From the NCBI GenBank assembly GCA_030386295.1, contig JANQAO010000001.1, forward strand, positions 135,546 to 199,545: 64,000 nucleotides of DNA. Direction: 5' to 3'. The translations under genes were made by a program, and so were the position numbers. Positions 2,400 through 63,011 of the stretch are shown here, in pieces. Below the pieces are notes generated by a model. It saw only the letters and a list, made by a program, of their open reading frames with translations. It made no database searches and was not told the DNA's origin. Position 1 is the stretch's first letter; each line of letters starts with the position of its first letter. Source of the stretch: Candidatus Doriopsillibacter californiensis. GTDB lineage: Bacteria; Pseudomonadota; Gammaproteobacteria; Tethybacterales; Persebacteraceae.

Positions 2400-4892
2400 T
2401 TATTTCTTGGCTGCTGTTTTTTTAGCGGCTCGCGGCGGGAAATCAAAAGTTAATGCACCGCTTTTGTCTTCTTTGTTAATTTTTAGCCGTGCTTTGAATG
2501 GTCGACGATTCTTTTTTGAAATAAAGCCATCCAAAAAATCAGTCTGCCCGTCAGCTAACAATTTTTGCATTTCTGCTGGCAACAATTCCCGTTGCAAAAT
2601 ACGCCGCGGAAAAGAAAAATCACAAGTACCATCATCAACCTTGCGTTTGCACACATAAACTCCCACATCACGCACGGAAGCAGTGCATTTAGGACAAGCG
2701 CCCACCGTTTCTTTATCTTGCAAATCAGCAGCGGTTAACTCTTTGCCTCCATTATTGTCAAAGTCAAAAATGGCCTTCCAATTGCCATCATCATCTTTAC
2801 GCAAAAACATGGGCGCAGAAAATTCGCGTCCCATCTTGCTACGAAACCCTTCCAGCTCTACGGTTTCTCGCTTGGATAATAACTCTTCAACCTCGGCAAC
2901 AGAAAATTCGCGTCCCGCCACCGCTTTCCATAGAAAAAATTCACACGACTGGCATGAAAATCGTCGATGACTTTCACGCACAGTACCGCCACAAGAGGGA
3001 CATGGCGATTGCAGAGTAGCATAATCTCCTGCTAATTTTTCCACTTCGCCGCAAGCTTTGGCGGCGTCAACTATGCGTGTTGTCAATTTTCGTATCTCTT
3101 TCATAAACTGTTCATGATCAAAGTCAGCACGCTCCATGCGGCGTAATTTATACTCCCAATCGCCGGTCATTGCTGGTAACGTCAAATCTTCCACCTTGAG
3201 TGCCCGCAACAACCGCAACAGCGACTGAGCTTTCGGGGTGGGAACCAATTCACGTCCATCACGTATTAAATACCGCTCACGCACTAGACCCTCAATAATT
3301 GCTGCCCGCGTAGCCGGCGTGCCAATACCACGCTCGCGCATGGCCTCACGCAATTCTTCATCTTCTACAAATTTACCCGCGCCTTCCATTGCCGACAGCA
3401 GTGTCGCCTCACTATAACGTGGTGGTGGCACCGTGCGCTTTTTCTCAGATTCAATACCTACCACCGTTGCCGTCTCTTCGGCCGTTACCGCCGTGATAAT
3501 AGCGTCTTTTGGCAATTGACCAGCTGCTTCGCGCCAGCCAGAATCCAATAAAATTCGCCCTTTCGTTTCAAACACATGAGTGCCTACCGTAGTGCGCCGC
3601 TCAGTAACTTCATAACGCGTCGGTGGATAAAATACCGACAAAAATCGCCGCAAAATCGCCTGATATACTTTGCGCTCTATATCTTTGAGAGAATCTTTGG
3701 GCAACACACCGGTCGGCACAATAGCGAAATGATCAGATACTTTAGCATCATTAAAAATTCGCTTGTTTCCGCCGTTAACCCATTGTTTATCTAAAATCTT
3801 TTGCGCAAACACCCCGGTTTCTGCCTCGGTACTCAACGATTGCAGGGTTTTATTGACGACCGCCGGATAATCACTCGGCAGCACCTTGGAATCAGTCCGC
3901 GGATAAGTAATCATTTTATGGCGCTCATACAGCGCTTGCGCCGCCCCCAGTGTTGCCCGTGCCGATAACCCAAAACGAGCGTTAGCCTCTCGCTGCAACG
4001 ACGTTAAATCAAATAGTGCCGGTGGAGATTCGGAAGAAGGCTTTTTCTTCTCAACAATTTTTCCACTACCGCCTTCGCACTCAGCGACAATTTGTTGTGC
4101 TCGTTCGCCATCAAAAATACGCTCTAGCCGTTTTTCATCGTCTTTACCAGCTTGAGGGGGTCCGACATTAAGCCACCGTCCCTCATACTCCCCAGCGGCA
4201 ACACTAAATTGCGCATTAACCTCCCAATAATCGCGCGACTCAAAAGCCACTCTTTGTTGCTCGCGCTCGACAATAATTGCCAACGTCGGCGTCTGCACCC
4301 GCCCAACCGTAGTAAGCATAAAACCACCGCCAACCGAATGCAATGCCGTCATTGCCCGCGTGGAGTTAATGCCCACTAGCCAATCTGCTTCTGAACGGCA
4401 TACTGCCGCTCGCTGTAGCGGCACCATATCGGCATCATCTTGCAATTTGTCAAAACCCGCACGAATTGCCGTCGGCGTCATGGAACTCAGCCATAGTCGA
4501 CGCACCGGCTTTTTGTTATGCTTGCCGTTGAGGTGGCGCATTAAATTGTAAAAAATAAGCTCTCCCTCACGTCCGGCATCGCAAGCATTGACGATTTCGG
4601 TAACATCAGCGCGCTTATACAATTTTTTTATCACTTGTAGCCGAGCGGCGCCTGTCTTTATTGGCGCCAGATCAAAATAATCGGGCAGTACTGGCAAATT
4701 AGGCAAACTCCACTTACCACGCTTGACTTCAAACTTTTCTGGTGCCACCAATTCCAACAAATGTCCCACAGCGGAACTCACTACATAACTTTCGTTTTCA
4801 TAAAAATCTTTTTGTCGTGTCATGCCGCCTAGGGCACGGGCAATATCACCCGCCACCGACGGTTTCTCGGCAATTATTAATGTTTTGCTCAT
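2400..4892 (-). CDS. topB: DNA topoisomerase III with a C-terminal zinc-ribbon extension (830 aa)
   Basis: The N-terminus LIIAEKPSVAGDIARALGG carries a Toprim domain. The topo IA core is followed by CPSC..C..C and CPKC...C..C zinc-ribbon-like repeats. Confidence 0.8.
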   Translation of the reverse strand: MSKTLIIAEKPSVAGDIARALGGMTRQKDFYENESYVVSSAVGHLLELVAPEKFEVKRGKWSLPNLPVLPDYFDLAPIKTGAARLQVIKKLYKRADVTEIVNACDAGREGELIFYNLMRHLNGKHNKKPVRRLWLSSMTPTAIRAGFDKLQDDADMVPLQRAAVCRSEADWLVGINSTRAMTALHSVGGGFMLTTVGRVQTPTLAIIVEREQQRVAFESRDYWEVNAQFSVAAGEYEGRWLNVGPPQAGKDDEKRLERIFDGERAQQIVAECEGGSGKIVEKKKPSSESPPALFDLTSLQREANARFGLSARATLGAAQALYERHKMITYPRTDSKVLPSDYPAVVNKTLQSLSTEAETGVFAQKILDKQWVNGGNKRIFNDAKVSDHFAIVPTGVLPKDSLKDIERKVYQAILRRFLSVFYPPTRYEVTERRTTVGTHVFETKGRILLDSGWREAAGQLPKDAIITAVTAEETATVVGIESEKKRTVPPPRYSEATLLSAMEGAGKFVEDEELREAMRERGIGTPATRAAIIEGLVRERYLIRDGRELVPTPKAQSLLRLLRALKVEDLTLPAMTGDWEYKLRRMERADFDHEQFMKEIRKLTTRIVDAAKACGEVEKLAGDYATLQSPCPSCGGTVRESHRRFSCQSCEFFLWKAVAGREFSVAEVEELLSKRETVELEGFRSKMGREFSAPMFLRKDDDGNWKAIFDFDNNGGKELTAADLQDKETVGACPKCTASVRDVGVYVCKRKVDDGTCDFSFPRRILQRELLPAEMQKLLADGQTDFLDGFISKKNRRPFKARLKINKEDKSGALTFDFPPRAAKKTAAKK

Positions 4893-4902
4893 TTCCGCCT
4901 TT

Positions 4903-7335
<2,433 letters not shown>

Positions 7336-7348
7336 TTATCCAAATAAA

Positions 7349-8485
7349 TTACATACGTACTGGCATTACAACATACTGAAAAGATGGCTCACCGTCACCA
7401 GCTGGTTCTATTAATACACTACTTGATTCCTCTAAAAGACGCATTTTAAAAACATCTTCCTCCACAGCGGACAATATATCCAATAGAAAATTAATATTAA
7501 AACATAATTTAATTGCATCATTTTCATATTTAGCGTCAGTCTCTTCTACCGCGCTTTCATTCTCTTTATTTACACACTCTAGTTTCATCCCTTCGGGGGA
7601 AAGCGATACGATAACAGTTGCGCCACGTTCCTCAGCCAACACAGAGACTCGTTGCAGGCTGGCTAAAAAAGACCTCCGTTCCACTAAGGCTATTTTGTCA
7701 TTATTACGAGGAATAACCGAACGATAGTCAGGAAAAGTCTCCATAATAATATTAGACGTCAACTCAAATGTGTCACCACAAAACCGTACTACCCGATTGC
7801 CTGCTTCAATTTTTATTTCGTTTTCTCCTTCTGCTGACAAATTACGAATAAGCTCGTTAACACTTTTTCTTGGTAATATCAGTTGAGCATCATCTGCCAT
7901 CTTTTCCGGCGTCAGAACTTTCATTGCTAAGCGATGCCCATCCGTTGCTACAAACCGCAAACCATCAATAGAGCTTTCTAAAAACACTCCATTAAGATTG
8001 GTGCGGTGGGATTGTTGAGCAGAAGCATAATGTACTTGCCGAAGCGATTCTAATAACGTTTTTGCTTGCACGTTGAGCAACGGTTTAATATCTGTACTTT
8101 TTCCCATTAACGGAAAATTTTCTGCTGATAAAGTTTGTAATTTATATTTACCGCGCCCAGCAGTCAGTTGCATAAGAAGCTGTTTTTCTCCACCATCGTT
8201 TTTTTCTTCTTCAAATACCAAACTAACTTCCATCCCTTTTTCTAATTTTCTAATGATATCTTGGAGTTTTTTAGCGGGTACGGTTATGCCGAACTCAGCA
8301 TCTGTCTCCACATTACAAGATGACATAATTTGCATTTCTTGATCTATCGCGGTCATGCTAAGGGATGAGCCGGCTGCCTGTAATAAAACGTTAGCAAAAA
8401 TCGGGTTAATTACAGTTCCTTGGGTAACCCCACTAACTTTATCTAGACAGTGTAACAACGAACTTTGATTTGTTGTAATTTTCAC
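7349..8485 (-). CDS. dnaN: DNA polymerase III beta sliding clamp
   Basis: 378 aa with three-domain beta-clamp architecture, located immediately downstream of dnaA. Confidence 0.93.
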   Translation of the reverse strand: MKITTNQSSLLHCLDKVSGVTQGTVINPIFANVLLQAAGSSLSMTAIDQEMQIMSSCNVETDAEFGITVPAKKLQDIIRKLEKGMEVSLVFEEEKNDGGEKQLLMQLTAGRGKYKLQTLSAENFPLMGKSTDIKPLLNVQAKTLLESLRQVHYASAQQSHRTNLNGVFLESSIDGLRFVATDGHRLAMKVLTPEKMADDAQLILPRKSVNELIRNLSAEGENEIKIEAGNRVVRFCGDTFELTSNIIMETFPDYRSVIPRNNDKIALVERRSFLASLQRVSVLAEERGATVIVSLSPEGMKLECVNKENESAVEETDAKYENDAIKLCFNINFLLDILSAVEEDVFKMRLLEESSSVLIEPAGDGEPSFQYVVMPVRM

Positions 8486-8618
8486 AACGACTTCTCCTTC
8501 TTATTAAATATTAATATTAATTAAATGTTAATGATGATGTACCCTGTATAAAAACATAAAAACTATTATCCTTCATTGAAATAAAAGGAGTTGAGCTTTA
8601 TTATCTTATGTATAAAGC

Positions 8619-8627
8619 TGTGTATAA
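8619..8627. promoter_or_regulatory. Perfect DnaA box (TGTGTATAA, i.e. TTATACACA) in the AT-rich 235 bp dnaA-dnaN spacer, with a weaker TTATCCTTC at 8566-8574
   Basis: Read directly from the sequence. The spacer 8486-8720 is strongly AT-rich with repeated TTAATATTAA-type motifs (DUE-like). Confidence 0.4.
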
Positions 8628-8720
8628 CAGGTGTGTGATTATTGATAGAATAATTTTGGTTATTAAATTGCACAGAGTTATGTTTATACTGTGAAAGGGT
8701 TTTATACATGTTATCAAGCA

Positions 8721-10052
8721 TTAAGATTTAATGAGCATTTCTAAGATTTGTATTTCTTCTTGGGTTTTTGAATTGGCTTTAAGTTCTTTTTCTATTTTAC
8801 GGCAGGAATGTAATACAGTAGTATGTTCTCTATCGCCGAACTGAGCGCCAATTTCTGGCAGACTAAGGTTAGTTAGTTGTCGGCAGAGGTAGATAGCAAA
8901 GTGACGTGGTTGTGCTATTGAACGGTGACGGCTACGAGAAGATAAATCAGATACACGTAAGCGGAAAAAATCAGCTACTTTCTTTTTTATGATATCTACG
9001 TTAACTGTTTCTTTTGCGGATTCTAATAAATCGGTTAGTGCTTCGTGGCAAATTTCTAAAGAAGGCGGCTTGCCAGAAAATGTGCAGGCAGCTAAAATGC
9101 GATGTAACGCACCTTCCAGTTCACGTACGTTGGATTTTATTCGTTCAGCAACAAAACGGGTAACTTTTTCGTCCAATTTAACACCCCGGGCCAACGCTTT
9201 TTTATGCAAAATAGCTTCACGTAATTCCAGCTCAGGGGGAGCTAAATGTGTGGGTAAACCACAACGCAGACGAGAAGTTAAACGCTCCGGTAAATCACGA
9301 ATTTGTGAAGGAGCGCGGTCGCTAGTGATAATGATAATTTTATTTTCATCGTGTAATTTGTTGAAAAGAAAGAAAAATTCTTCCTGAGTGCGTTCCATAT
9401 TACCGCCGATATATTGAATATCGTCCACAATTAGTAAGTCTAGACCATCGTAACGACGTTTAAACTGGGCATGCTGATTTAAACGGCAAGCGTTAATAAC
9501 ATCGGTCATAAAGTCACGTGCCATTACATAACGCACTTTACGCGTAGGATGCAAAGATAAATAGTGGTTGGCAATAGCCTGTGCTAAATGAGTTTTGCCA
9601 AGTCCTGTGCGGCCATAAAGAAGTAACAGCGGGCTCATGTGGTCTACCGTGCCACTGCTGATAGCGCGTCCGGCAACTAAGGCAATTTCGTTTGCCCGAC
9701 CAGGCACAAAAGAGTCAAAAGTGAGATCGGCGCGCAGATTAGTTGTACGGTCTACCTGCGTTTTAGTACGCGCTGAAGGCGATGTTTTTGATGCCGGTTT
9801 TGAAATGGATTGAGCCATATCGGTCTGAAAATCTATTTGGATGTCTTTGCCAAAATGTTGTTGTGCCATTTCTCGAACTGACGGCTTAATGTTTTCAGAT
9901 AACCAGCGCACAGTAGCTTCGTTTGGTGCCTGCAACAGTAAGTGGGTATTGTCCGTCATTTTCGCCTGAGTCGGAGAAATAAAAGCGTCAAAAACCGTGT
10001 CACCAAACTGGAGACGTAACTGGGAAACACAAGATGACCAAAAATTTTCCAT
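8721..10052 (-). CDS. dnaA: Chromosomal replication initiator DnaA
   Basis: AAA+ Walker A (GRTGLGKTHL), an LLIVDDIQY box, sensor motifs and a C-terminal DNA-binding helix-turn-helix domain. 443 aa. Confidence 0.95.
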   Translation of the reverse strand: MENFWSSCVSQLRLQFGDTVFDAFISPTQAKMTDNTHLLLQAPNEATVRWLSENIKPSVREMAQQHFGKDIQIDFQTDMAQSISKPASKTSPSARTKTQVDRTTNLRADLTFDSFVPGRANEIALVAGRAISSGTVDHMSPLLLLYGRTGLGKTHLAQAIANHYLSLHPTRKVRYVMARDFMTDVINACRLNQHAQFKRRYDGLDLLIVDDIQYIGGNMERTQEEFFFLFNKLHDENKIIIITSDRAPSQIRDLPERLTSRLRCGLPTHLAPPELELREAILHKKALARGVKLDEKVTRFVAERIKSNVRELEGALHRILAACTFSGKPPSLEICHEALTDLLESAKETVNVDIIKKKVADFFRLRVSDLSSRSRHRSIAQPRHFAIYLCRQLTNLSLPEIGAQFGDREHTTVLHSCRKIEKELKANSKTQEEIQILEMLIKS

Positions 10053-10057
10053 AAATA

Positions 10058-10657
10058 TTATTCTGAAAAAACAAAAAAAACTGGTCTATCATGAGACTCT
10101 GCAGGCACACAAGACACTTTCTGACATGAAAACACGGGAGCGCAGGAGAATGTTGAGGAGAGACCAAACATAAATGTATCATAAAAACCGCCACCATAAC
10201 CGAGACGGTAATGTGCGGCGTCTACCGCAACAGCTGGGATAATAGCAAAATCAAAGAGTTGCGATTTTTGTATAACAACTGAATGTGGATAAGGCTCAGC
10301 AATACCCTTGAATCCGATTTGTAATTCGTGTCGGGCGAGTACTTGATGAAACTGCAATTGTCGTTTTCCGGTTACTCGAGGAAAAAAAAGCTGCTTGTTA
10401 TTTTTCCAGCAGTCTGTCAGCAATGGCCATATATTGACCTCTTCTTCCATCGGCGCAAAAGCAGCGATAACGGTAGCTTGTTGAAATGCAGGTAACGCGG
10501 CAATTTGCGAACAAATACGCCGAGAAGCTTTCTCTCGTAAGGGAGTACCCATTTTGTGACGCGTAGCCAATATTCGCTTGCGCAAGACACTTTTTTGTCG
10601 GCTAAGCCGAGATGGATTAGAAGAGGCCGCTAATGTTGCCGTCATCATCCACGTCAA
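10058..10657 (-). CDS. 5-formyltetrahydrofolate cyclo-ligase (MTHFS family)
   Basis: C-terminal GYGGGFYD and E..HDRPV motifs typical of 5-FCL. It overlaps the fhs stop and ends 5 nt upstream of the dnaA start, so the true start may be an internal Met. Confidence 0.7.
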
Positions 10658-12290
10658 TAGCGCAAGCAGCGGGTGTTTTTGGTAGTCCAGGCATAGTCAT
10701 AATATTGCCACCGAGTAGCACAATAAATTCGGCACCCGTATTCAAACGAGCGCCCGATACATGAAAACTGTAACCATCTTTGGGAATACCGCGGTTGAGT
10801 GGATTGTTAGTAAAAGCATACTGTGTTTTGGCGATACAAATTGGAAAATGTCCGTGGGTTTCTTGCCATTGTTCCAAGTCTGCCGACACTTTAGGGTCAG
10901 AACTCACTGCGTCAGCGCCATAAATTTTATGTGTAACCGCTTCTGCTTTTTGCTTAAGAGGCAAAGAGTCATCATACAGATTATTCATTTTAACGTCGCT
11001 ATTAGCTAAGGCGGCTACTTTTTCTGCCAGTTCAACGGCGCCCTTGCCACCATTTGCCCAATGGTAGCAGATGCTCATATCTGCCCCTTCTTCCTCACAG
11101 AGAGAGCGGAACGTCGCAATTTCGTCATCCGTGTCGTGGGTGAAGTGGTTAAGTGCGATAACAACCGGTAAGCCGTAATGGGTACGGATGTTGCGCAAAT
11201 GACGGCGGACATTTTCAAAGCCGTCACGAACCGCCTGCGTATTTTCCTTGTTCAAGTCATCACGGGTTATGCCGCCGTGATATTTGACGGCGCGCAGAGT
11301 GGCAACTAGTACAGCGGCATCAGCGGCTAGCCCGCTTTTGCGGCATTTAATGTCCACAAATTTTTCTGCGCCTAAGTCTGCGCCAAAGCCTGCTTCGGTG
11401 ACAACATAATCAGCCATTTTGAGTGCCATGCGGGTAGCTAAAACAGAATTACATCCGTGGGCAATATTAGCGAAAGGACCACCATGTACAAAAGCAGGAT
11501 TATTTTCTAACGTCTGCACCATATTAGGCGATAGTGCATTTTTGAGCAAGGCGGTCATGGCACCGGCGACACCCAGTTCGTCAGCGGTGACCGGTGTTTT
11601 ATCGGTGTCAAGACCGACCGTGATTTGCGCAATGCGTCGTTTGAGGTCGGTTAACGACTCGGAAAGGCACAAAATTGCCATAATTTCAGACGCCACCACG
11701 ATATCAAAACCATCACTGCGAGGAAAACCATTACCAGGGCCGCCCAAGCCAACTACTAATTGGCGCAGAGCTCGGTCATTCATATCTACTACCCGCCGCC
11801 AGAGTATGCGACGACTGTCTAGGCGTTTGGCGTTGCCGTGATGCAGGTGGTTGTCGATAATTGCTGCAAGCAAATTATGTGCCAGCGAAATAGCGGAAAA
11901 ATCGCCGGTGAAATGAAGGTTAATATCTTCCATGGGGACAACTTGCGCATAACCACCACCGGCGGCACCGCCTTTCATTCCAAAAACAGGGCCGAGCGAG
12001 GGTTCTCGTAGAGCGACGGCAGCGTTTTTTCCAATATGGTTGAGCGCGTCTGTGAGACCGACGGAAGTCGTTGTTTTTCCCTCACCGGCAGGGGTGGGGG
12101 TGATGGCGGTGACAAGAATTAATTTACCGTCAGGTTTTTCGGCGTGAGTCCTCAGCAAATCAAGAGAAAGCTTGGCCTTGTAGTGGCCAAACGGTTCCAT
12201 TTCAGTGGCGGGTAGATCAAAGCGTTCGGCGGCTAGTTCAATAATGGGCCGCATAGTTGCCTGTCTGGCAATATCAATATCGGTGGGCAT
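10617..12290 (-). CDS. fhs: Formate--tetrahydrofolate ligase
   Basis: [17 protein letters not shown]-loop and full-length (557 aa) similarity to the FTHFS family. Confidence 0.9.
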
Positions 12291-21529: not shown

Positions 21530-22085
21530 AATGGGTTCCTATTAGTTTGAATAATTTTTCCCAATCAAATGCTGGACCGGGATCGGTTTTTCGTTTGGGA
21601 GCAATATGTTCGTGCCCGGCTACCGCTAATGGTGTGTAGCAGGCGGCAAGAGACTGAATGAGTGTGGTCAACTTTGTATATTGCACGGTTTCGTAAGGAA
21701 TGTCATCAGTGCCTTCCAATTCTACGCCGATGGAAAAATCATTAACTTTTGTTTTCCCGCGCCAACACGATTCACCAGCATGCCAAGCGCGGCGGTTGCA
21801 AGATACAAATTGTGTTAATTGTCCGTCTCGCCGCAACAAAAAATGTGCTGAGACTCGCAAATTTCGTAAGGTATTGTAAAACGGATGAGAGTCACAGTCC
21901 AAAGTGTTTCTGAACAAATGTTCAATAGCATCACCATCAAACATTCCCGGAGGTAGCGAAATACCGTGCACTACCAGCAAGCGAACAGCTTTATCGGAAC
22001 GATCGTCTTGATTGGGGCTGTACAAATGAACGGTGTCGCTCATCCAGCCGTTGTTATCTAAATTCATAATGGAATAATTATGCAA
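21513..22085 (-). CDS. ampD: 1,6-anhydro-N-acetylmuramyl-L-alanine amidase
   Basis: Amidase_2 fold with the conserved HGISLPPG..., AWHAGES zinc-ligand region. Confidence 0.8.
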   Translation of the reverse strand: MHNYSIMNLDNNGWMSDTVHLYSPNQDDRSDKAVRLLVVHGISLPPGMFDGDAIEHLFRNTLDCDSHPFYNTLRNLRVSAHFLLRRDGQLTQFVSCNRRAWHAGESCWRGKTKVNDFSIGVELEGTDDIPYETVQYTKLTTLIQSLAACYTPLAVAGHEHIAPKRKTDPGPAFDWEKLFKLIGTHCDGRP

Positions 22086-22953
22086 AAGCCGCCGCTAACC
22101 CAGCAAAAACAAAAGCACCAAACCAATGATTGGCGCGAAAAGCTGACAAGCAAGCAGCGGGTTGGCGGGTACGATATAACTGCCAAAAGCGAAAAACCAA
22201 CGACATGGCAGCGATTAACGCCACTTGATAAGCCGTACCCAGCACATACCAGACACCAAGAAAGGACAGCCACAGCACCGCCGCTGCATACAATAAACTT
22301 ATTGCCGTGACATCATTGTTATCTAGCCATACCGCGCTACTCTTGGCCCCGGCTTTAATGTCATCGTCGCGGTCACACATAGCGTAAATGGTGTCATAAG
22401 CGAGTACCCAAAGCCAATTAGCGACCACAAACAGCCACGCTTGCAGTGGTGGTGATTCTCCACGCACGGCGGCATAAGCGATGGGGATGCCGAAACTAAA
22501 AGCCGCACCCAAGACCATTTGCGGCACAGCAAATATTCGTTTGGCCAGCGGATACGCCGCCGCCAGTGCTAGTCCAGCCAGAGCCCACAATTGAGCAATA
22601 GCGGGTAATTGTAAAAATAACGCCGCCGCGATGAGTAAAAAAAATGCGGCGACCATTGCTGCTTCCGCTACGCTAATACGCCTTGCTGCCAATGGTCGAG
22701 TGCGGGTACGCGCCACTTGCGCATCCAGTTTTCGGTCAACAATGTCGTTGACGGCGCAACCAAAGGCGCGCATGGCGAAGACGCCGGTAACAAAAATCAC
22801 CAGCCAGCGTGAGCCTGGCCAGCCTTCTGCCGCGAGCCATAGTCCCCACAGAGTCGGCCACAGTAGTAGCAGTGAGCCAATCGGTTTGTCAAAGCGAGCA
22901 AGTGATAGATAATCCAACAGTCGTAACATGGCGATTGGGAAATAATATTGCAA
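22078..22953 (-). CDS. ubiA: 4-hydroxybenzoate polyprenyltransferase
   Basis: N-terminus LDYLSLARFDKPIGSLLLLWPTLWGLWLAA, an NDxxDxxxD motif (VNDIVDRKLD) and a multi-TM profile. Confidence 0.9.
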   Translation of the reverse strand: MQYYFPIAMLRLLDYLSLARFDKPIGSLLLLWPTLWGLWLAAEGWPGSRWLVIFVTGVFAMRAFGCAVNDIVDRKLDAQVARTRTRPLAARRISVAEAAMVAAFFLLIAAALFLQLPAIAQLWALAGLALAAAYPLAKRIFAVPQMVLGAAFSFGIPIAYAAVRGESPPLQAWLFVVANWLWVLAYDTIYAMCDRDDDIKAGAKSSAVWLDNNDVTAISLLYAAAVLWLSFLGVWYVLGTAYQVALIAAMSLVFRFWQLYRTRQPAACLSAFRANHWFGAFVFAGLAAAFA

Positions 22954-34517: not shown

Positions 34518-35453
34518 GTGCGCATATGGCTGATGGACAGCGGTGGTGCTGGTTTTCGCGCACAAACGGCAGGACTTGGCAATGCCATTGCCGCCCGCCA
34601 TCCACAAACGGCAATAACCACAATAACGGTTTCGTCTCGATTGTGGCCGCGGTTGTTTTTATCAGCGTCGTTGCCCGATAAGGATAGACCCGACGTAGTG
34701 ATTGCCTGCGGTCGTGCTGCTGTTGTTCCGGCATTAGCGGCTAAACGCCGACATGGCGCCTTTACTGTGTACATCCAGCGTCCACCGAAGGCTAACGCTT
34801 TTGACGCTGTTGTCTGCGGATTACATGACAATTTAACTGGTGACAATGTGCTGCCGATTATTGGTTCCGTTGGCGGTTTTTGTGCTAATACTCTGGTACA
34901 TCGTCGCCACGCTGCCGAAAAAATATTTGCGGCAGTGCCAGAGCCGCGTACCGCTGTACTTATTGGCGGCAGCAACCGCGCTTTTAATTTTACTCCAGAA
35001 GATTGCCGACAACTGGCGGCAGAAATTAAAGAAACAGCTGGCGACAGCGGGTTGTTGGTGAGTGTTTCCCGTCGTACCGGAAAACAAAACACCGCAATTT
35101 TTGATACGGCTTTTGCTGGTAGCAAGCATTTTTTTTTCAACGGCAACGGTGACAATCCTTATACCGACATGTTGGCCGTTGCCGACCGTTTTGTAGTGAC
35201 CGGTGACTCAGTTAACATGCTTAGTGAAGCTTGCACCGCGGGCAAGCCGACTTATATTTTTCCGCTGCGGAAAAAATTTATATGCGTCACTGCCGCTAAA
35301 TTTCATCGGTTTCATCACCTGCTTATTGATAATGGTTATGCCCGCTTATGGGAAAAACGGTTTGATGAATGGAGTTCGCCCGCATTCAACGAAACTGCGC
35401 GTGCGGCTGACTTTGTTTTGCGCCGCTATCATGAGTGGTGCCAACGCGGATGA
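34518..35453 (+). CDS. ELM1/GtrOC1-family (DUF1022) putative glycosyltransferase
   Basis: 311 aa. The N-terminus RIWLMDSGGAGFRAQTAGLGNAI and overall pattern resemble the bacterial 'mitochondrial fission ELM1' family. This is a recognition-based call. Confidence 0.55.
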   Translation: MRIWLMDSGGAGFRAQTAGLGNAIAARHPQTAITTITVSSRLWPRLFLSASLPDKDRPDVVIACGRAAVVPALAAKRRHGAFTVYIQRPPKANAFDAVVCGLHDNLTGDNVLPIIGSVGGFCANTLVHRRHAAEKIFAAVPEPRTAVLIGGSNRAFNFTPEDCRQLAAEIKETAGDSGLLVSVSRRTGKQNTAIFDTAFAGSKHFFFNGNGDNPYTDMLAVADRFVVTGDSVNMLSEACTAGKPTYIFPLRKKFICVTAAKFHRFHHLLIDNGYARLWEKRFDEWSSPAFNETARAADFVLRRYHEWCQRG

Positions 35454-35468
35454 TATAATTATTTTCAT

Positions 35469-36122
35469 ATGAACGCCGTCGTCAGCGCTATAGATTGGGA
35501 TGTTTTGCAGCAAACTTCGGTGCAAAAATCTCCTTTTCCGCATCTCATTGTTCCAGGTTTTATTGCAGCGGCACAGAAGGATGTGGTTAACCGCGATTTT
35601 CCTGACATTCAATCACCGGGTTCTTTTCCCGCGGCTACGTTGCACTGTGGTGATGCTTTTTCAGGTTTGTTGGAGGAATTACGAGGGGCGCGCTTGGCGA
35701 CTTTAATAGGCGAAAAATTTGGTATGGAACTTGGTGATCGTGAAACCATGATTACTGTGCGTGGTCAGTGTCGTTCCACCGATGGCAAAATTCATCTAGA
35801 TTCAAAAGGCAAGCTTATTACCATATTGATTTATATGAATGGTCCGTGGGAATCCGACGGTGGTCGTTTGCGATTACTCAACGGACCTGATGATATTGAA
35901 GATTATTTTGCAGAGACACCGCCGTCACAAGGAACGATGCTGGCTTTTGCTTGCGCTGATAATGCTTGGCACGGACACAAAAGTTTTTCTGGTCGGCGTC
36001 GTGCCATTCAACTTAACTGGGTGCGGGATGAGCGCTACCTACGCCGCGAACGCCAGCGTCATACTGTTAGTGCCGCACTCAAAAAAGTAAGCCGTTTTTT
36101 TAGGCTGCAAAAAAAGACTTGA
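35469..36122 (+). CDS. 2OG-Fe(II) oxygenase superfamily protein (P4H-like small dioxygenase)
   Basis: HLD...H...R motif set (HLDSKGK ... AWHGHK ... GRRRAIQLNW) on a roughly 217 aa DSBH scaffold. Confidence 0.6.
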   Translation: MNAVVSAIDWDVLQQTSVQKSPFPHLIVPGFIAAAQKDVVNRDFPDIQSPGSFPAATLHCGDAFSGLLEELRGARLATLIGEKFGMELGDRETMITVRGQCRSTDGKIHLDSKGKLITILIYMNGPWESDGGRLRLLNGPDDIEDYFAETPPSQGTMLAFACADNAWHGHKSFSGRRRAIQLNWVRDERYLRRERQRHTVSAALKKVSRFFRLQKKT

Positions 36123-36141: not shown

Positions 36142-38034
36142 ATGGCATTGCCCATCCAAACGTTTAGCAATCAATCCGGCGGATTTTCTTATTTTAAGGC
36201 GCTTGGTCATCCTTTGGCGGTTACTGGTGGAGCCGCTATTTTGAAAAAAATTCGCACAGCTCGGCGAGCTGCCGTCTATGACCCACTGGGGCAGTTAACG
36301 GCTTTTTCCGCATTGCACGGCTTGCGAACCGATGATTTTACTGATTGTTTCGTCCGTGACACGTTTTTACTTAATGAACAAACGCTGGGGCATGACCATC
36401 GTCCAGTTACCGAGCTTGCGCACGCGGATATAGATGTATTGTTTATGCCGGTTTTTGACGCCGGGTTGCTGTTAGATCAAATCAGCGGGCTGTTGCCTGC
36501 CGGTTGCGTTACGGTGACGCTGGACGAGATGCGCATTCCTGGGCGATTGCTCACCAACAAACGCAATTATTTAGACAAACTTAATTTCGCCACCAATTTT
36601 GCTTTCTTTCGTGATGAAGCGGGTAAACATTCGCGGCTGGTCACCGCCAACTATTGGGGAGGCTATGGTGCAAAAGGTACATTTTTATGGTGTCGCTTGT
36701 TTGCAGGTAGCGGTGACGTGTTGCTGGATTTTGAAGTGCCGCTGCAACACGCTAATCAAACCGTGGTGATTGATAGTCGCCAATTGCGTGCTGAGCATGG
36801 GTTGTCCGATTTTTGTGGACAATTATTTATTTCAGTGGTTAATGGTGCCGGGCACGATATCGTCAAGTATGTAATTGATACGGGCGGCGGCGAAGAAGAA
36901 GTTAGTTGTACGCATGATGCTAACGCTTGGCCGGCGGATTTGTACGCTGGGTTGCCTGCGCCCATGGCGGATGAAAAGGTGTTGCTGTGGGTGCAAAATT
37001 CGCATCCCGTTCCGATTGCTGCAAGTGAAATCGGGTTAAATCTGATGGGTGATAACAATATTGCTTGGCTGGACGAAGAAATTGCTCCCTTTGCTAGCTG
37101 TGCTGTAGACGTGTCATCTTTGCTACCTAACGCGCGCTGGCCACAGCAATTGGAAATTCAAGCTGGCAAGTGGTTTGTGCGTCCACGTTATGAAATTATT
37201 AAAGCGGGTCGGAGTCGTATTAATCATCCCAATGTAGAGCGCAATGACTTGCAGCACGATGAGAACATTCGCCGTTTGACCGCACACTTGGGTAAAGGTT
37301 TTATCTTGCCTGCACCGATTTTGCCGCCAGATGAATTCGTTAGTGAGTGTTTGCCCACGCCGATGTCTACGGCGCAAACCTCTTTGCCTATTATTACCGT
37401 TGCCTATGATGCTGACGGTAATGAAATCGCCCGCGAAGCTTTAGGCAATCTGCCGCGCAATCATACTCGGCAAGTAGATTTAACAGCGCTCGCCGCTAAC
37501 ATCCCCGCTGGTGGTGGTCATGTGGAATTGCAGTACGATTTAGATGCGAATGGAGTGATGGATGGTTGGCTGCATGCATTGTTTCGTTACACGGACAAAC
37601 GTTCTGGTCACGGCGCTGACACTAGTTTTGGCGCACACTTATTCAATCACATCATGACTTTTCGCAGTGAACCGCAGTCTTACAAAGGTCCGCCACCGGG
37701 ACTCAGCACCCGTCTATTTTTGCGCTTGATGCCAGCGCCGGCACGCGTTTTTTGCCATCTAACTTACGCGGTTTGTTCACAATGGCATGCGTATTCCAGC
37801 ACTATACTGGAGCTCAAAAATGCAGCTGGAGAAGATGTATCCCGTACTGCTTTTTCTATTCCTGCCAACGGCTCGCGGTTGTTTTTTGCTGATGAAATGT
37901 TCAATGCTACTGATTTGCAGCAGGCTGGCGACAATGGCTATATTTTGGTGCGTGATAGTACCTGCCGTCTGTTTGGTTATCACGGTGTCCGGCAGAACAG
38001 CGGTTTTGCGCTAGATCATATGTTTGGCTTTTAA
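36142..38034 (+). CDS. Large hypothetical protein (630 aa) with no family I can recognise; no signal peptide or TM segments apparent
   Basis: Long uninterrupted ORF with genome-typical codon usage and tight spacing to its operon neighbours (19 nt upstream, 18 nt downstream). Confidence 0.7.
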   Translation: MALPIQTFSNQSGGFSYFKALGHPLAVTGGAAILKKIRTARRAAVYDPLGQLTAFSALHGLRTDDFTDCFVRDTFLLNEQTLGHDHRPVTELAHADIDVLFMPVFDAGLLLDQISGLLPAGCVTVTLDEMRIPGRLLTNKRNYLDKLNFATNFAFFRDEAGKHSRLVTANYWGGYGAKGTFLWCRLFAGSGDVLLDFEVPLQHANQTVVIDSRQLRAEHGLSDFCGQLFISVVNGAGHDIVKYVIDTGGGEEEVSCTHDANAWPADLYAGLPAPMADEKVLLWVQNSHPVPIAASEIGLNLMGDNNIAWLDEEIAPFASCAVDVSSLLPNARWPQQLEIQAGKWFVRPRYEIIKAGRSRINHPNVERNDLQHDENIRRLTAHLGKGFILPAPILPPDEFVSECLPTPMSTAQTSLPIITVAYDADGNEIAREALGNLPRNHTRQVDLTALAANIPAGGGHVELQYDLDANGVMDGWLHALFRYTDKRSGHGADTSFGAHLFNHIMTFRSEPQSYKGPPPGLSTRLFLRLMPAPARVFCHLTYAVCSQWHAYSSTILELKNAAGEDVSRTAFSIPANGSRLFFADEMFNATDLQQAGDNGYILVRDSTCRLFGYHGVRQNSGFALDHMFGF

Positions 38035-38052
38035 AATTAACAAGAATTTATT

Positions 38053-38580
38053 ATGAATATTACGCTTTCCAAATTTAACGCACTTGCCGCTGCTAAATTA
38101 ACATTGATGGCGGTGATGATGTTTGGTTTTGGTTATGCGATGGTGCCGCTGTATTACAAAATCTGTCAAGTAACGGGCATTAAAAATTTACTTAATCCTG
38201 CCGACACGGATGATATTGCCGTTGATCCCAATCGCCGCTTGCGGGTGGAATTGGACACCAACGCCCGCGGATTGGTGTCAATGAGTCCCAGTGTGCGGCT
38301 AATGGACAGTGTGGAGTCGGGACAAACATACAGTGTTATCTATACGCTTAAAAATCTTAGCAATCGTCGCTTGGTTGGTCAGGCTATTCCATCTTATGCT
38401 CCGGCGCGTGCCGGAGCGTGGTTCAAAAAAATTCAATGTTTTTGTTTTGATCAGCTAACAATGGAGCCCGATGAAGTGCGGGAGGCACCGGTGGTGTTTA
38501 TTATTGATGCTGCCATGCCTGAGGATATCAACACGGTGGCGTTGTCATATACTTTTTTTGAGGTAGAAGGCGCTCAGTGA
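38053..38580 (+). CDS. ctaG: Cytochrome c oxidase assembly copper chaperone Cox11/CtaG
   Basis: N-terminal TM anchor plus the Cu-binding CFCF motif (IQCFCFDQ). 175 aa. Confidence 0.85.
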   Translation: MNITLSKFNALAAAKLTLMAVMMFGFGYAMVPLYYKICQVTGIKNLLNPADTDDIAVDPNRRLRVELDTNARGLVSMSPSVRLMDSVESGQTYSVIYTLKNLSNRRLVGQAIPSYAPARAGAWFKKIQCFCFDQLTMEPDEVREAPVVFIIDAAMPEDINTVALSYTFFEVEGAQ

Positions 38581-38756
38581 AAGCCTTTTTGCTTGCTGCT
38601 AAAACTGTTATTTTCGCTTTTTTTGGGGTTCGCCGCAAAAATGCTGCAGCAACTGATTGGAATACACTTAAGCCGCATCATGTCATTATTGCCGGAATTT
38701 TTATGGCAGCATTATTTATCGCTATTATCTTGACCGTGGTAGATTTAATCGTTTAA
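38577..38756 (+). CDS. DUF2970-like small membrane protein (59 aa, GTG start overlapping the cox11 stop)
   Basis: Translation VKAFLLAAKTVIFAFFGVRRKNAAATDWNTLKPHHVIIAGIFMAALFIAIILTVVDLIV. It is absent from the ORF track (under 60 aa) and resembles small proteins found in oxidase assembly clusters. Confidence 0.5.
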   Translation: MKAFLLAAKTVIFAFFGVRRKNAAATDWNTLKPHHVIIAGIFMAALFIAIILTVVDLIV

Positions 38757-38836
38757 TCTAACGTGAGTGCCTGTTCGCACAACGGTTGCTAAAAATGCAC
38801 AACATTTGAGGGCGGTGTTTTTTAAAGCAAGACAAG

Positions 38837-39907
38837 TTGTGTCACATGAAAAAACAACCGTTCTGTGTTGTTCGTCAGTGCGAGGAGCCGCTTTTTAGCC
38901 TTTTGTATCGGGCACGGGTAAAATACACGATGATGACGCAAGTGCCTTCTGGATCCAATGTCGCTGGTATGCAGACGGATTCGTTTCGCCGCCCATGGTG
39001 GCTGTTTTCCGGTCATATGGAAACCATTGCATCACTTTATGAACGCAATCAAGAGTCATTTGAAAATCGTGTTATTCCAACACCGGAAGGCGATGAAATT
39101 TTACTTAGTTATGTAATGGGCGATGAAAAAATGCCCTTGCTAACTTTGTTTCATGGATTAGAAGGATGTGCGCAAAGTCACACCATACGCCTACTGGCAT
39201 CTTATTTTATCGCTCAAGGGTGGACAGTGGCGGTGCCACATTTTCGTTCTTGTGGCCACATGAATCGATTGCCGCGCGCCTATCACGCCGCCGACGGTGC
39301 CGAGGTGCGCTGGATGTTAAATTGGTGTCGTGCTGCTTTTGTTCGGCCGTACACCTTTGCCGCTGGTGTGTCATTAGGTGGCAATGCGCTGATTCGTTGT
39401 TTGGACTCTACTGATGAAACAGAGTCGTGTTGTGCAGCGGCAACCGTGAGTGCGCCGCTGGACTTAACTGCCGCTGCTTATCATCTCAATAGTGGTTTTC
39501 CGCACCTGCTATATGGGCGGCATTTTTTAAAACTACTACGTGCTAAAGTGCTGGTTAAGGCGGCACGCTACCCGTCAATATGTGATTTAAAAAAGCTGCG
39601 CCGTGCCCGCACTATTGGCGATTTTGATGAACTATACACTGCACCAGTACATGGTTTTTCCAGTGCCCAAGCATACTGGCGGCGAGCATCAGCCTATACT
39701 GCCCTGTTGCGAATGAAAACGCCGTTGTTGTGTATAAACGCGCAAAATGATCCAATGGTACCAGTAGCCTCGCTACCAGTTAAGGCGTCATCAGCGGTTA
39801 GTTTTTGTCGTCCTCGGCACGGTGGACACGGCGCTTTTTTTGGTAAGCCGGCTAATTGGCTGGCCGCTACGATGGGCGATTTTTTCAACCAATATATGAA
39901 TTCTTAA
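38837..39907 (+). CDS. YheT-type alpha/beta hydrolase
   Basis: HGLEG...nucleophile elbow GVSLGGN; abhydrolase family. The start is uncertain (alternative Met at about 38927). Confidence 0.7.
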   Translation: MCHMKKQPFCVVRQCEEPLFSLLYRARVKYTMMTQVPSGSNVAGMQTDSFRRPWWLFSGHMETIASLYERNQESFENRVIPTPEGDEILLSYVMGDEKMPLLTLFHGLEGCAQSHTIRLLASYFIAQGWTVAVPHFRSCGHMNRLPRAYHAADGAEVRWMLNWCRAAFVRPYTFAAGVSLGGNALIRCLDSTDETESCCAAATVSAPLDLTAAAYHLNSGFPHLLYGRHFLKLLRAKVLVKAARYPSICDLKKLRRARTIGDFDELYTAPVHGFSSAQAYWRRASAYTALLRMKTPLLCINAQNDPMVPVASLPVKASSAVSFCRPRHGGHGAFFGKPANWLAATMGDFFNQYMNS

Positions 39908-39940
39908 TCAATTTTAAATTTCAAATACTAGAATAAAACA

Positions 39941-41299
39941 ATGACAATTGCGGCTAATATTTTTAAAGCAAACGATATTCGCGGTATTTATAATGATACG
40001 CTTACTGATGATGCGGCGCGCTCCATTGGTCGTGCTCTCGCCGCCGAGGCCTTGGATGCCGGTGCCACCAGTATGGCATTGGCGCGCGATGGACGATTGT
40101 CTAGCCAGCCGCTGACCGTGGCACTAACGGAAGGACTGTGTGCCGGCGGGGTATCGGTTGTTGATATTGGTATGGCGCCGACGCCGGTATTGTATTTTGC
40201 CGCGCAAACACTGTGTAGTGGGAGTGGCGTGATGGTTACCGGCAGTCATAATCCGCCCGCTCACAATGGCATGAAAATGCTTATTGCTGGGCGTACATTA
40301 AAAGGTGATGGCGTTCAGGAATTGAGGCGACGTATTGAAACAGGAGATTATGGTAGCGCGCCAACAGCAGAGGGACAAAACGTTGATGTATTGGAAAACT
40401 ATATTGCCGCTGTGTGCTGTGCTGTGCCCACTGCACGGGCGCTGCATTTAGTAGTGGATGCCGGTAACGGCGTGGCAGGTGCCTATGCACCGATGCTGTA
40501 TAAAAAACTAGGGCATCAGGTGACGTCGTTATATTGTGATGTGGACGGGAATTTTCCTAATCACCACCCCGACCCTGCGCAGCCAGAAAATCTTATTGCC
40601 GCCCGCAAAAAATTGAATGAAACCGACGCTGATATAGCGATAGTATTTGACGGCGATGGCGATCGTTTGGGCGTGTTACTACCCGGGCGGGAAGACTGGG
40701 TTTTTCCCGATAGGCTATTGATGTTGCTGGCACAAGATATGTTGAGTCGCCACCATGGCGGACGGGTGGTATTTGATGTCAAATGTAGTGCTAATTTAGC
40801 GCCGTGGATTGAACAGCATGGCGGCATTGCCGACATGCAGCCGACGGGGCACGCCTTTATCAAATCGCGTATGAGAGAGACTGGTGCACTGTTGGGCGGT
40901 GAAATGAGCGGGCATTTTTATTTTGCCGAACAATGGTTTGGTTTTGATGATGCGTTACTTGCCGGTGCTCGGTTGGTTGCCATTATTGGCAACAATCCCC
41001 ATGTGATGAGGGACATTCCCTCAAGCGCGGCCTCACCAGAAATTGTGGTGTCCATTGGTGCACGAGACGGCCACGCTTTTGTGCGTGATTTGCGAAACAA
41101 AGTGCACTTTCCCGACATGAAAAAAATAGTAGATATTGACGGGTTGCGGGTGGAATATGCTGATGGCTTTGGCTTGGTGCGGGCTTCCAACACGACCGCT
41201 TCTTTGGTGTTGCGCTTTGAAGGTAACAATGATGAAGCGTTGCAGCGTATTACCAATGATTTTAAAAAATTTCTGGCAGCAGAAGGAATTGTTTTTTAG
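39941..41299 (+). CDS. algC: Phosphomannomutase / phosphoglucomutase
   Basis: Active-site TGSHNPPAHNGMK phospho-Ser loop, DGDGDR metal loop and GEMSGH sugar-binding loop. Confidence 0.9.
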   Translation: MTIAANIFKANDIRGIYNDTLTDDAARSIGRALAAEALDAGATSMALARDGRLSSQPLTVALTEGLCAGGVSVVDIGMAPTPVLYFAAQTLCSGSGVMVTGSHNPPAHNGMKMLIAGRTLKGDGVQELRRRIETGDYGSAPTAEGQNVDVLENYIAAVCCAVPTARALHLVVDAGNGVAGAYAPMLYKKLGHQVTSLYCDVDGNFPNHHPDPAQPENLIAARKKLNETDADIAIVFDGDGDRLGVLLPGREDWVFPDRLLMLLAQDMLSRHHGGRVVFDVKCSANLAPWIEQHGGIADMQPTGHAFIKSRMRETGALLGGEMSGHFYFAEQWFGFDDALLAGARLVAIIGNNPHVMRDIPSSAASPEIVVSIGARDGHAFVRDLRNKVHFPDMKKIVDIDGLRVEYADGFGLVRASNTTASLVLRFEGNNDEALQRITNDFKKFLAAEGIVF

Positions 41300-41384
41300 A
41301 AAAAGATATTCCGATTACAACGCTTGCGAGAATGGTTAAATAAAAAAGATAATTTGCCGCGATAAATAGGAAGCTGGCGGTATG

Positions 41385-41573
41385 TTATTTGGGAAAAAGC
41401 CCAAACTGAGAGGAAACAATAATAAACACGAATAGCAAAACCGACAATCCTACGCGAATAGTGAGCGCCCGCACGGTTTTGTTGCTGCCGCTGCGATCAC
41501 GCAACATATGAAATAAGCCGATAAACAAATTAATAAAAATAAAACACAACAAAAGGATGAAAATAATGCGCAT
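41385..41573 (-). CDS. Twin-transmembrane-helix small protein (DUF2909-like, 62 aa)
   Basis: Two hydrophobic helices separated by RDRSG. This family is commonly found in aa3-oxidase assembly clusters. Confidence 0.45.
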   Translation of the reverse strand: MRIIFILLLCFIFINLFIGLFHMLRDRSGSNKTVRALTIRVGLSVLLFVFIIVSSQFGLFPK

Positions 41574-48869: not shown

Positions 48870-49224
48870 GGGGGCGCATTTTGGGCTTTGACGTGAGTTG
48901 CAAAGCAGACGGAGCATGCCAAGCTAAGACGCCTTGTAAAACCGTTTTAAAAAAAAACATAAACGCGAATGACCAGCGTTTCGCTTTAGCCGCTTAATCC
49001 GGCTAAGCCTTCACCCCAGAGGGTTCGCACTCTGGTCAGTGGAGTCATCTTGCGAACTCGCTATTTATTGTGCTGTCTAATAAATAGTTAAACTTTTGAT
49101 GGCTGGCGTTGTGTTCGCTACGTTTAGCGGGCCTGCACAATGCGACAACGAACGCTAAACTAAGCATGTAGCGCCGGTTGTGTAGCCCTTGCGGACGGGG
49201 GTTCGAATCCCCCCGCCTCCACCA
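48870..49224 (+). ncRNA. ssrA: tmRNA (SsrA), about 355 nt; the tag reading frame encodes ANDQRFALAA*
   Basis: 5' GGGGGCGCAUUUUGGGCUUUGACG..GCAUGCC. Resume codon and tag GCGAATGACCAGCGTTTCGCTTTAGCCGCTTAA. The conserved AAACUAAGCAUGUAG motif and the tRNA-like 3' end GGACGGGGGUUCGAAUCCCCCGCCUCCACCA are present. Confidence 0.88.
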
Positions 49225-61922: not shown

Positions 61923-62109
61923 GTTGCTCGGCGTACGCCGTTGGAAAGAATTTGGGTATTGTGTGGTGAGTCATGAATAATAAGATTTTTGATATTATTG
62001 CTAAATTGTAAAAAACGAATAATGACTCAATTTATGGTACAACTTTTTCCGCAAAAACGGATGAAGATTCTAACCACGAAGAAATTGCGGCGTGGCGTGG
62101 CGGTATCTT

Positions 62110-62550
62110 ATGTCTAATTTATTTTCAATCATTCACGGACCCAATCTAAACATGCTTGGCAAGAGAGAAATCGGCATTTATGGGAAGGAAACGATGGACG
62201 ATATTAATGCTGAAATTAATCGCGAAGCGGATCGGATTGACGTTGCAGTTGATTTTTTTCAATCCAATTCAGAAGGTGAGTTGGTAACGCACATGCAGCA
62301 ATGCCGAGAAAGAGCTAAAGGCGCCGTGCTCAACGCTGGAGCGTACACGCATTATTCAATCGCTTTGCGCGATGCCATTTCGGCGGCGCAGATTCCAGTT
62401 ATTGAAGTGCATATATCCAACGTTTACAAGCGGGAAAGTTTTCGCCATGTGTCAGTGATTGCGCCTGTGTGCGCCGGGCAAATTTGTGGTTTTGGTTCGC
62501 AAGGATATATCTTGGCGCTTAAAGTGTTGGCTGAAAAATTTGATATTTAA
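62110..62550 (+). CDS. aroQ: 3-dehydroquinate dehydratase, type II (catalytically intact)
   Basis: HGPNLNMLGKREIGIYG (Arg/Tyr), NAGAYTHYS and EVHISNVYKRESFR with all canonical catalytic and binding residues. The ORF-track start at 62092 is an upstream extension. Confidence 0.9.
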   Translation: MSNLFSIIHGPNLNMLGKREIGIYGKETMDDINAEINREADRIDVAVDFFQSNSEGELVTHMQQCRERAKGAVLNAGAYTHYSIALRDAISAAQIPVIEVHISNVYKRESFRHVSVIAPVCAGQICGFGSQGYILALKVLAEKFDI

Positions 62551-62555
62551 TTGAT

Positions 62556-63011
62556 ATGAAAAACAGTGAAAAATTGAAAAAAATCCTAGTCATATCAGGA
62601 CCTAATATAAGCTTTTTGGGAGCGGATGAAACTTCCATTGATGAGCAAATTTTTTTAAAAGAAATTCATAGCACATTAAATTCGATTGGTAGTGAATTTA
62701 ATGTTGAAGTCGTTTGCGTTCAATTTGATCAAGAAAAAGAAACAATAGACTGTTTACAAAAAGCCACTGATGCGTTTAGGGGAATTATTATTAACGCAGG
62801 TATTTTGGCGCGCAATGGTTATGCACTTCGTAACGCCATTGAGGCGTTGGCTGTGCCCTGTGTTGAGGTTTTTGTTTCCAATGTTCATGCCAGTGAAGAA
62901 TGCCGCCACCAGTCTGTTATCGCTTCCGCTTGCGTTGGTGTCATCGGTGGTTTTGGTATCAAAAGTTATATTTTGGCGCTACAAGCATTAGTCCATCTGA
63001 GGGAAGTTTGA
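62556..63011 (+). CDS. Type II dehydroquinase-like paralog lacking the catalytic residues (probable pseudo-enzyme), with noticeably lower GC
   Basis: Same fold-length and GPN/NAG/SNV scaffolding, but Arg19 and Tyr24 become D/D (LGADETSID), His81 becomes R (NAGILARNG), His101 becomes F (EVFVSN) and Arg108 becomes S. AT-rich codon usage. Confidence 0.75.
   Translation: MKNSEKLKKILVISGPNISFLGADETSIDEQIFLKEIHSTLNSIGSEFNVEVVCVQFDQEKETIDCLQKATDAFRGIIINAGILARNGYALRNAIEALAVPCVEVFVSNVHASEECRHQSVIASACVGVIGGFGIKSYILALQALVHLREV

Follow-up and report, generated by a model that had tools for sequence, protein, structure and literature searches.

The subject of this work is a group of three genes in a stretch of 64,000 nucleotides (nt) of the genome of Candidatus Doriopsillibacter californiensis (hereafter, the window): ctaG, which encodes a protein of the Cox11/CtaG copper chaperone family, and the genes for two small membrane proteins, DUF2970 and DUF2909. 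We consider it very probable that the three are functional and nothing out of the ordinary, serving as biogenesis and accessory genes for a cytochrome c oxidase of the aa3 type (A family), the structural genes of which lie elsewhere in the 1.53 Mb genome. The first-pass annotation of the window had described them as oxidase-assembly genes without an oxidase, but subunits I (P0511) and III (P0122) are both present in the genome. These are known genes, already annotated, and only the gene order differs, the operon being dispersed. The bacterium (strain Df01) is an uncultured member of the Tethybacterales that lives as a symbiont on the skin of the nudibranch Doriopsilla fulva; its genome of 1,532,643 bp in five scaffolds (99% complete) encodes the SOX pathway and sulfide oxidation but lacks nitrate reduction (PMC10262491).

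Assembly genes in the window and oxidase genes elsewhere

The ctaG (cox11) gene of the window (38053-38580, plus strand) encodes a protein of 175 amino acids (aa), predicted to be a membrane-anchored periplasmic copper chaperone. Cox11/CtaG is the textbook chaperone for the CuB centre of subunit I of aa3 oxidases; it is anchored in the inner membrane and exposes its Cu(I)-binding CFCF domain on the periplasmic side. The window protein matches PF04442 over the full profile (1-148 of 148; E=2.2e-38, 132 bits, cut-off 25) and NCBIfam NF003465 (188 bits, cut-off 162), its residues 30-172 align with the solved CtaG structure 1SO9 (E=1e-23), and it is 100% identical to the NCBI entry 'cytochrome c oxidase assembly protein [Candidatus Persebacteraceae bacterium Df01]'. 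The N-terminal membrane anchor is kept as a hydrophobic segment (residues 16-34). The Cu(I) site is kept as well, comprising C129-F-C131-F and Cys38 near the anchor, and is invariant in 7/7 aligned sequences, among which we count the window's own; all 50 invariant columns of this alignment are retained.

The DUF2970 gene (38577-38756, plus strand; 59 aa) begins with a GTG codon that, as read from the sequence, overlaps the ctaG stop by 4 nt (GTGA). Its product matches PF11174 (E=1.4e-15, 57.3 bits, cut-off 27) and carries a strong hydrophobic segment at residues 31-59. The DUF2909 gene (41385-41573, minus strand; 62 aa) lies downstream in convergent orientation and encodes a twin-transmembrane-helix small protein with two predicted hydrophobic helices (residues 1-26 and 33-62), which matches PF11137 (E=1.4e-19, 70.2 bits, cut-off 31.4) and NF033233, 'twin transmembrane helix small protein' (54.8 bits, cut-off 49). 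The family assignments made at the first pass, CFCF-type Cox11 and the two DUFs, are therefore sound, as each match exceeds its curated Pfam or NCBIfam cut-off, and the possibility then raised that the DUF assignments were wrong can be set aside. A relationship of DUF2909 to HIG1 was considered and dropped, as a second family did not emerge from a permissive Pfam scan. Both small proteins are companions of the oxidase genes, and the oxidase complex is presumably their target as well.

None of the structural genes adjoins these assembly genes, so that no contiguous ctaC-ctaD-ctaG-ctaE operon is present. We searched the whole window by tblastn with COX1, COX2, COX3, SURF1, COX15, CtaB, SCO1 and PCuAC from the canonical operon of Paucimonas lemoignei (L009), and with COX1 and COX2 from a sponge-metagenome contig (L021), and found no COX1, COX2, COX3, SURF1, COX15/CtaA, SCO1 or PCuAC. 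The observation that ctaC, ctaD and ctaE are missing for at least 20 kb is borne out, the absence spanning 38 kb upstream and 22 kb downstream. A UbiA-family gene (22078-22953) was examined as a candidate for CtaB and rejected, with 27% identity versus about 50% in true orthologues; it most likely encodes a UbiA-type prenyltransferase.

Two of the structural oxidase genes were found at further loci, each standing alone. Subunit III is P0122 (281 aa), labelled 'cytochrome c oxidase subunit 3 [Candidatus Persebacteraceae bacterium Df01]'; it ranked second in a search with COX3 of the closest relative (L007), to whose ctaE product it is 79% identical. Its gene, ctaE, lies between mutY and thrS (L010 10001-10846). 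Subunit I is P0511 (MDM5147491.1; 541 aa), labelled 'cytochrome c oxidase subunit I [Candidatus Persebacteraceae bacterium Df01]', and its gene, ctaD, is solitary between a glyoxalase-like gene and tusA (L024). We recovered this sequence from the members of 90%-identity clusters; Df01 is not among the best 120 homologues of the L021 COX1, where Rhodocyclaceae-like sequences at 74-77% identity prevail. The catalytic motifs of P0511 are intact: WFFGHPEVY (His-Tyr CuB), WAHHMF (CuB histidines) and VAHFHYV with the HFHY heme ligands. Thus, an A-type subunit I with its CuB ligands, the usual client of Cox11, is encoded in the same genome as the window's chaperone. Indeed, the JGI sorted-cell sample 3300036137 contains both the window region (L001) and ctaE (L010), and sample 3300036229 contains both the window region (L002) and ctaD (L025). 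Each sorted-cell sample yielded one bin with essentially no contamination (PMC10262491).

Upstream of ctaD, where ctaC would be expected, there is a non-coding 550-bp spacer (L024 9452-10000). No COX2 remnant was detected by tblastn in this spacer, nor any COX2 within 10 kb of ctaD or in any Df01 locus examined. One suggestion of the first-pass annotation, that the oxidase is encoded elsewhere and the accessory genes have been relocated, therefore stands in so far as ctaD and ctaE occupy other loci; an intact aa3 operon lacking only the three accessory genes, which it had also envisaged, was not found. The search of the genome for ctaCDE that it had proposed yielded ctaD and ctaE, while ctaC was not located in the Df01 loci examined. 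As a separate observation, the sequence beside ctaE (L010, to about 20800) contains thrS, an HMGL-like/LeuA-like gene, a TctABC transporter, an aldehyde dehydrogenase gene and a gene for an AMP-binding enzyme. An antiSMASH file lists a COX3 domain within a predicted cluster region (ctg7_19) (PMC10262491), and ctaE of Df01 may sit at the edge of a beta-lactone gene cluster.

Some points weigh against our interpretation. In addition to ctaC, the genes for SURF1, CtaA, CtaB and SCO1 were not located in the Df01 loci examined. We infer the retained synteny of DUF2909 from its position alone, and both oxidase activity and co-transcription with the neighbouring genes from sequence. Finally, synonymous substitutions between Df01 and L007 are saturated, and the ratios of nonsynonymous to synonymous rates (dN/dS) for ctaG (0.16), DUF2970 (0.17) and ctaE (0.05) are rough figures, yet they are clearly well below 1. 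All three genes are under purifying selection.

The failure to locate ctaC, the reduced genome and the complete fragmentation of the operon could also be read as signs that the oxidase is being lost in genome reduction, with the three accessory genes persisting as decaying leftovers, as the first-pass annotation had considered. This is very improbable in our opinion. None of the three reading frames is disrupted and each exceeds its curated cut-offs, Cox11 retains its copper-binding cysteines together with every residue invariant in the seven sequences, and ctaD and ctaE, the genes of the supposedly lost enzyme, are intact; the low dN/dS values combined with intact motifs lead us to reject decay. 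The respiratory gene content of the family points in the same direction. KEGG counts in five Persebacteraceae metagenome-assembled genomes (MAGs) are 1, 1, 0, 0 and 1 for coxA, 1, 1, 1, 1 and 0 for coxB, and 1, 1, 0, 0 and 1 for coxC, with neither cydAB nor ccoN, the gene for the cbb3 catalytic subunit, in any of the five (PMC8546597 Table S7). Because Df01 lacks nitrate reduction and neither ccoN nor cytochrome bd is scored in the family, aa3 is probably the sole terminal oxidase of the Persebacteraceae, Df01 included. Among the full texts on Tethybacterales and nudibranch symbionts, which contain nothing on terminal oxidases, only that table was informative.

Proposed break-up of the cta operon in the Tethybacterales lineage

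The canonical arrangement is well represented by P. lemoignei (L009), in the order COX2-COX1-Cox11-DUF2970-COX3-DUF2909(-)-SURF1-x-COX15-CtaB-SCO1. The core of this order, including ctaC-ctaD upstream of ctaG, recurs without a DUF2970 match in a Thiotrichales MAG (L017), and its Cox11-to-SURF1 part recurs in a short Steroidobacteraceae contig (L018); both are matches listed in our DUF2909 scan, which took one genome per GTDB species. Thus, the order ctaE-DUF2909(-)-SURF1 is seen in all three. The canonical operon nearest to the window that we found is that of L021 (COX2-COX1-Cox11-DUF2970-COX3), with a Cox11 that shares 56% identity with that of the window, and L022 has the same ctaC-ctaD-ctaG-DUF2970-ctaE order. 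Previous studies have described the COX11-COX3 synteny of proteobacterial COX operons (PMC4013037) and the cta1 operon of Bordetella, ctaCDFGE1, which includes a DUF2970 gene, DUF2970 being noted in the cta1 operon of both Bordetella and Achromobacter (PMC11257404). A 29-aa open reading frame (ORF) between ctaD and ctaG is a further feature of some of these loci (L021 5527-5616, L022 5500-5589 and L023 285-374); it may encode a small oxidase assembly protein, and no counterpart was detected in the window.

Compared with this beta/gamma-proteobacterial locus, the window has the same three accessory families, the same order and coupling of ctaG and DUF2970, the same Cox11 copper site and a DUF2909 gene on the opposite strand downstream, oriented relative to ctaG-DUF2970 just as when it follows ctaE in canonical operons. 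It differs in having no adjacent structural gene, ctaD and ctaE being solitary elsewhere, and no SURF1, CtaA, CtaB or SCO gene nearby. A hydrolase gene and a phosphomannomutase gene, neither of them an oxidase gene, occupy the slot taken by ctaE in relatives. DUF2909 itself sits between the phosphomannomutase gene and an EamA transporter gene rather than in its usual position between ctaE and surf1.

This departure is partly shared with relatives of Df01. The relatives compared here are Tethybacterales-like in character and comprise mostly ENA assemblies, together with one NCBI assembly (L014) and sponge-symbiont MAGs. In 7/7 of the relatives' genomes examined, whose Cox11 proteins are 59-71% identical to the window's, ctaG is detached from ctaC-ctaD. 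The closest relative, L007, has the order 2OG-630aa-Cox11-DUF2970-COX3, L014 and L016 have Cox11-DUF2970-COX3, and L015 has ELM1-Cox11-x-COX3. L008 has ELM1-...-Cox11-DUF2970, and COX3 is solitary about 24 kb away (L019). In the 4.1 Mb genome of L020, Cox11 is found with a thioredoxin-like gene. Df01 thus resembles these relatives in the separation of ctaG from ctaC-ctaD, in the ctaG-DUF2970 pair and in an ELM1-like gene upstream, and L007 in addition has the 2OG-oxygenase and 630-aa genes. Unlike Df01, most relatives have ctaE directly after DUF2970; judging from the gene orders, ctaE would have moved away in Df01 and, independently, in the L008 genome. DUF2909 is not near ctaG in any relative's locus examined. 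At the L020 locus (9510-11091), DUF2970 is replaced as a neighbour of ctaG by a 164-aa ORF without annotation and an overlapping gene of thioredoxin/AhpC-like type, which may encode a TlpA/SCO-like partner.

These relatives keep subunit I of the oxidase. The COX1 protein P0521 and the Cox11 of L020 come from contigs that are both 4,124,949 bp long. In two further cases a COX1 member and a Cox11 contig agree in length (both 1,988,355 bp, and both 2,023,398 bp), as do a COX1 member and a COX3 contig (both 2,053,444 bp).

We can therefore propose how the arrangement arose. The ancestral beta/gamma-proteobacterial operon would have had the order ctaC-ctaD-ctaG-DUF2970-ctaE-DUF2909(-)-surf1-...-ctaA-ctaB-sco. 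Rearrangement in the Tethybacterales lineage would have broken it up and detached ctaC-ctaD from ctaG, and in Df01 the break-up would have gone further, with ctaD and ctaE becoming solitary genes on other contigs. What the window keeps would be a stump, ctaG-DUF2970, followed by two unrelated genes in the ctaE slot and then DUF2909(-). In a genome of 1.53 Mb, DUF2909 would fall within 3 kb of DUF2970 by chance with a probability of about 0.4%. Going by established knowledge of the family, Cox11 would load CuB into nascent subunit I in trans, and linkage to ctaD is then not needed. A comparable situation exists in eukaryotes, where COX11 is a nuclear gene and COX1 is mitochondrially encoded: there too the chaperone is unlinked from its client and works in trans. 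The eukaryotic split is between compartments, unlike that in Df01, and the comparison is meant as an analogy only.

Neighbours of ctaG and the rest of the window

In the window, ctaG and DUF2970 stand in a run of seven plus-strand genes. Upstream lie the genes for an ELM1-like protein (34518-35453; PF06258, 1.2e-76), a 2OG-Fe(II) oxygenase (35469-36122; PF13640, 1.6e-8) and a 630-aa protein, predicted to be soluble, of an uncharacterised family with no family match (36142-38034). Downstream are those for a YheT-like alpha/beta hydrolase (38846-39907, the start being taken from the JGI gene call; PF00561, 1.6e-6, and NF008218, 1.4e-55, below its cut-off) and for an AlgC/PgmG-like phosphoglucomutase/phosphomannomutase (39941-41299), which has four of the four PGM_PMM domains and for which PgmG ranks first among the NCBIfam matches (2.9e-120), below its cut-off.

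Of these neighbours, the 630-aa gene deserves most attention, as it ends 18 nt upstream of ctaG, at the canonical place of ctaC-ctaD, and adjoins ctaG also in the closest relative (L007 8093-9985, plus strand), the 2OG-Fe(II) oxygenase gene preceding it in both genomes. It would be tempting to speculate that Cox11 has been recruited to another copper protein, delivering copper to the product of an adjacent gene such as the 630-aa protein or the oxygenase; the first-pass annotation had listed recruitment among its options. We find this scarcely credible. The 630-aa protein, the oxygenase and the hydrolase all lack hydrophobic segments suitable as a signal peptide or membrane anchor, whereas the copper domain of Cox11 is periplasmic. 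Searches of Pfam, NCBIfam and PDB sequences gave no match to the 630-aa protein. Its AlphaFold (AF2) model, a confident one (pLDDT 91.8, pTM 0.92), resembles known structures by domain only, with a Rossmann-like domain at the N terminus together with several beta-sandwich domains (TM1070- or ASRT-like), and gave no cupredoxin or oxidase match. Moreover, the family counts 558 representative homologues, yet among the loci examined the gene adjoins ctaG only in Df01 and L007, and not in L008, L014, L015, L016, L020 or L021. A soluble, cytoplasmic protein is thus an implausible copper target for a periplasmic chaperone whose normal client, with a complete CuB site, is present in the same genome.

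The compactness of the run raises another possibility, namely that ctaG-DUF2970 has become part of a new regulatory unit, co-transcribed with the ELM1-like, 2OG-oxygenase, 630-aa, hydrolase and phosphomannomutase genes and coupling oxidase assembly to a sugar- or envelope-modification pathway. The gaps between the seven co-directional genes are 15, 19, 18, -4, 89 and 33 nt with no terminator-like site in them, read-through transcription is plausible, and an ELM1-like gene recurs upstream of ctaG in three relatives. We nevertheless regard such a coupling as unlikely. Promoter-like sites in the run occur only at background frequency, as judged from shuffled sequence, tight spacing is normal for a reduced genome, and the neighbours differ in L014, L016, L020 and L021. 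As the neighbours vary among relatives, we see no evidence for new functional coupling, and the explanation we favour, a dispersed but working oxidase operon, would make the placement of ctaG among sugar-metabolism and housekeeping genes a by-product of rearrangement. The ELM1-like gene is the neighbour upstream of ctaG in L008 (8281-9240) and L015 (8125-9120) and lies nearby in L007 (4159-5199); it is not found in canonical cta operons, and its recurrence probably reflects synteny within the lineage rather than function.

The rest of the window is housekeeping in character, including dnaA-dnaN-gyrB-topA, polA, aceF, hisGD, DsbD, ApbE and tmRNA genes, among others. The dnaA-dnaN-gyrB-topA cluster lies at 2400-10052 (minus strand), and the minimum of the cumulative GC skew falls near 6-8 kb; the window probably contains or adjoins the origin of chromosomal replication, about 28 kb from ctaG. 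The tmRNA gene (48870-49224, plus strand; tag peptide ANDQRFALAA) directly follows an ApbE-family gene. In addition, two tandem type II 3-dehydroquinase paralogues (62092-62550 and 62556-63011, plus strand) stand 5 nt apart, which is unusual in a reduced genome of 1.5 Mb.

Meaning for DUF2970 and for respiration in Df01

DUF2970 is found directly downstream of ctaG also in L007, L008, L014, L016, L021 and L009, and in Df01 and the first five of these the two genes overlap or lie within a few nt of each other. It is the only linkage that nearly all the genomes examined have kept, even with ctaC, ctaD, ctaE, DUF2909 and surf1 all dispersed, and its persistence is a hint that DUF2970 works with Cox11. 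We could speculate that DUF2970, far from being a passenger gene or encoding a subunit of the oxidase, is dedicated to helping Cox11 insert CuB and is needed in fixed stoichiometry, although we hold this idea tentatively and with more doubt than conviction. If it were true, this lineage with its dispersed operon would amount to a natural experiment on which cta linkages matter. The persistent translational coupling is in any case a usable hint for the function of DUF2970, if a minor one and of specialist interest.

More generally, a window that lacks adjoining structural genes says little about whether the genome as a whole lacks them, especially in the rearranged genomes of symbionts. For Df01 itself, our results support aerobic respiration through an aa3 oxidase, which fits the sulfur-oxidising, non-denitrifying gene content of this symbiont.

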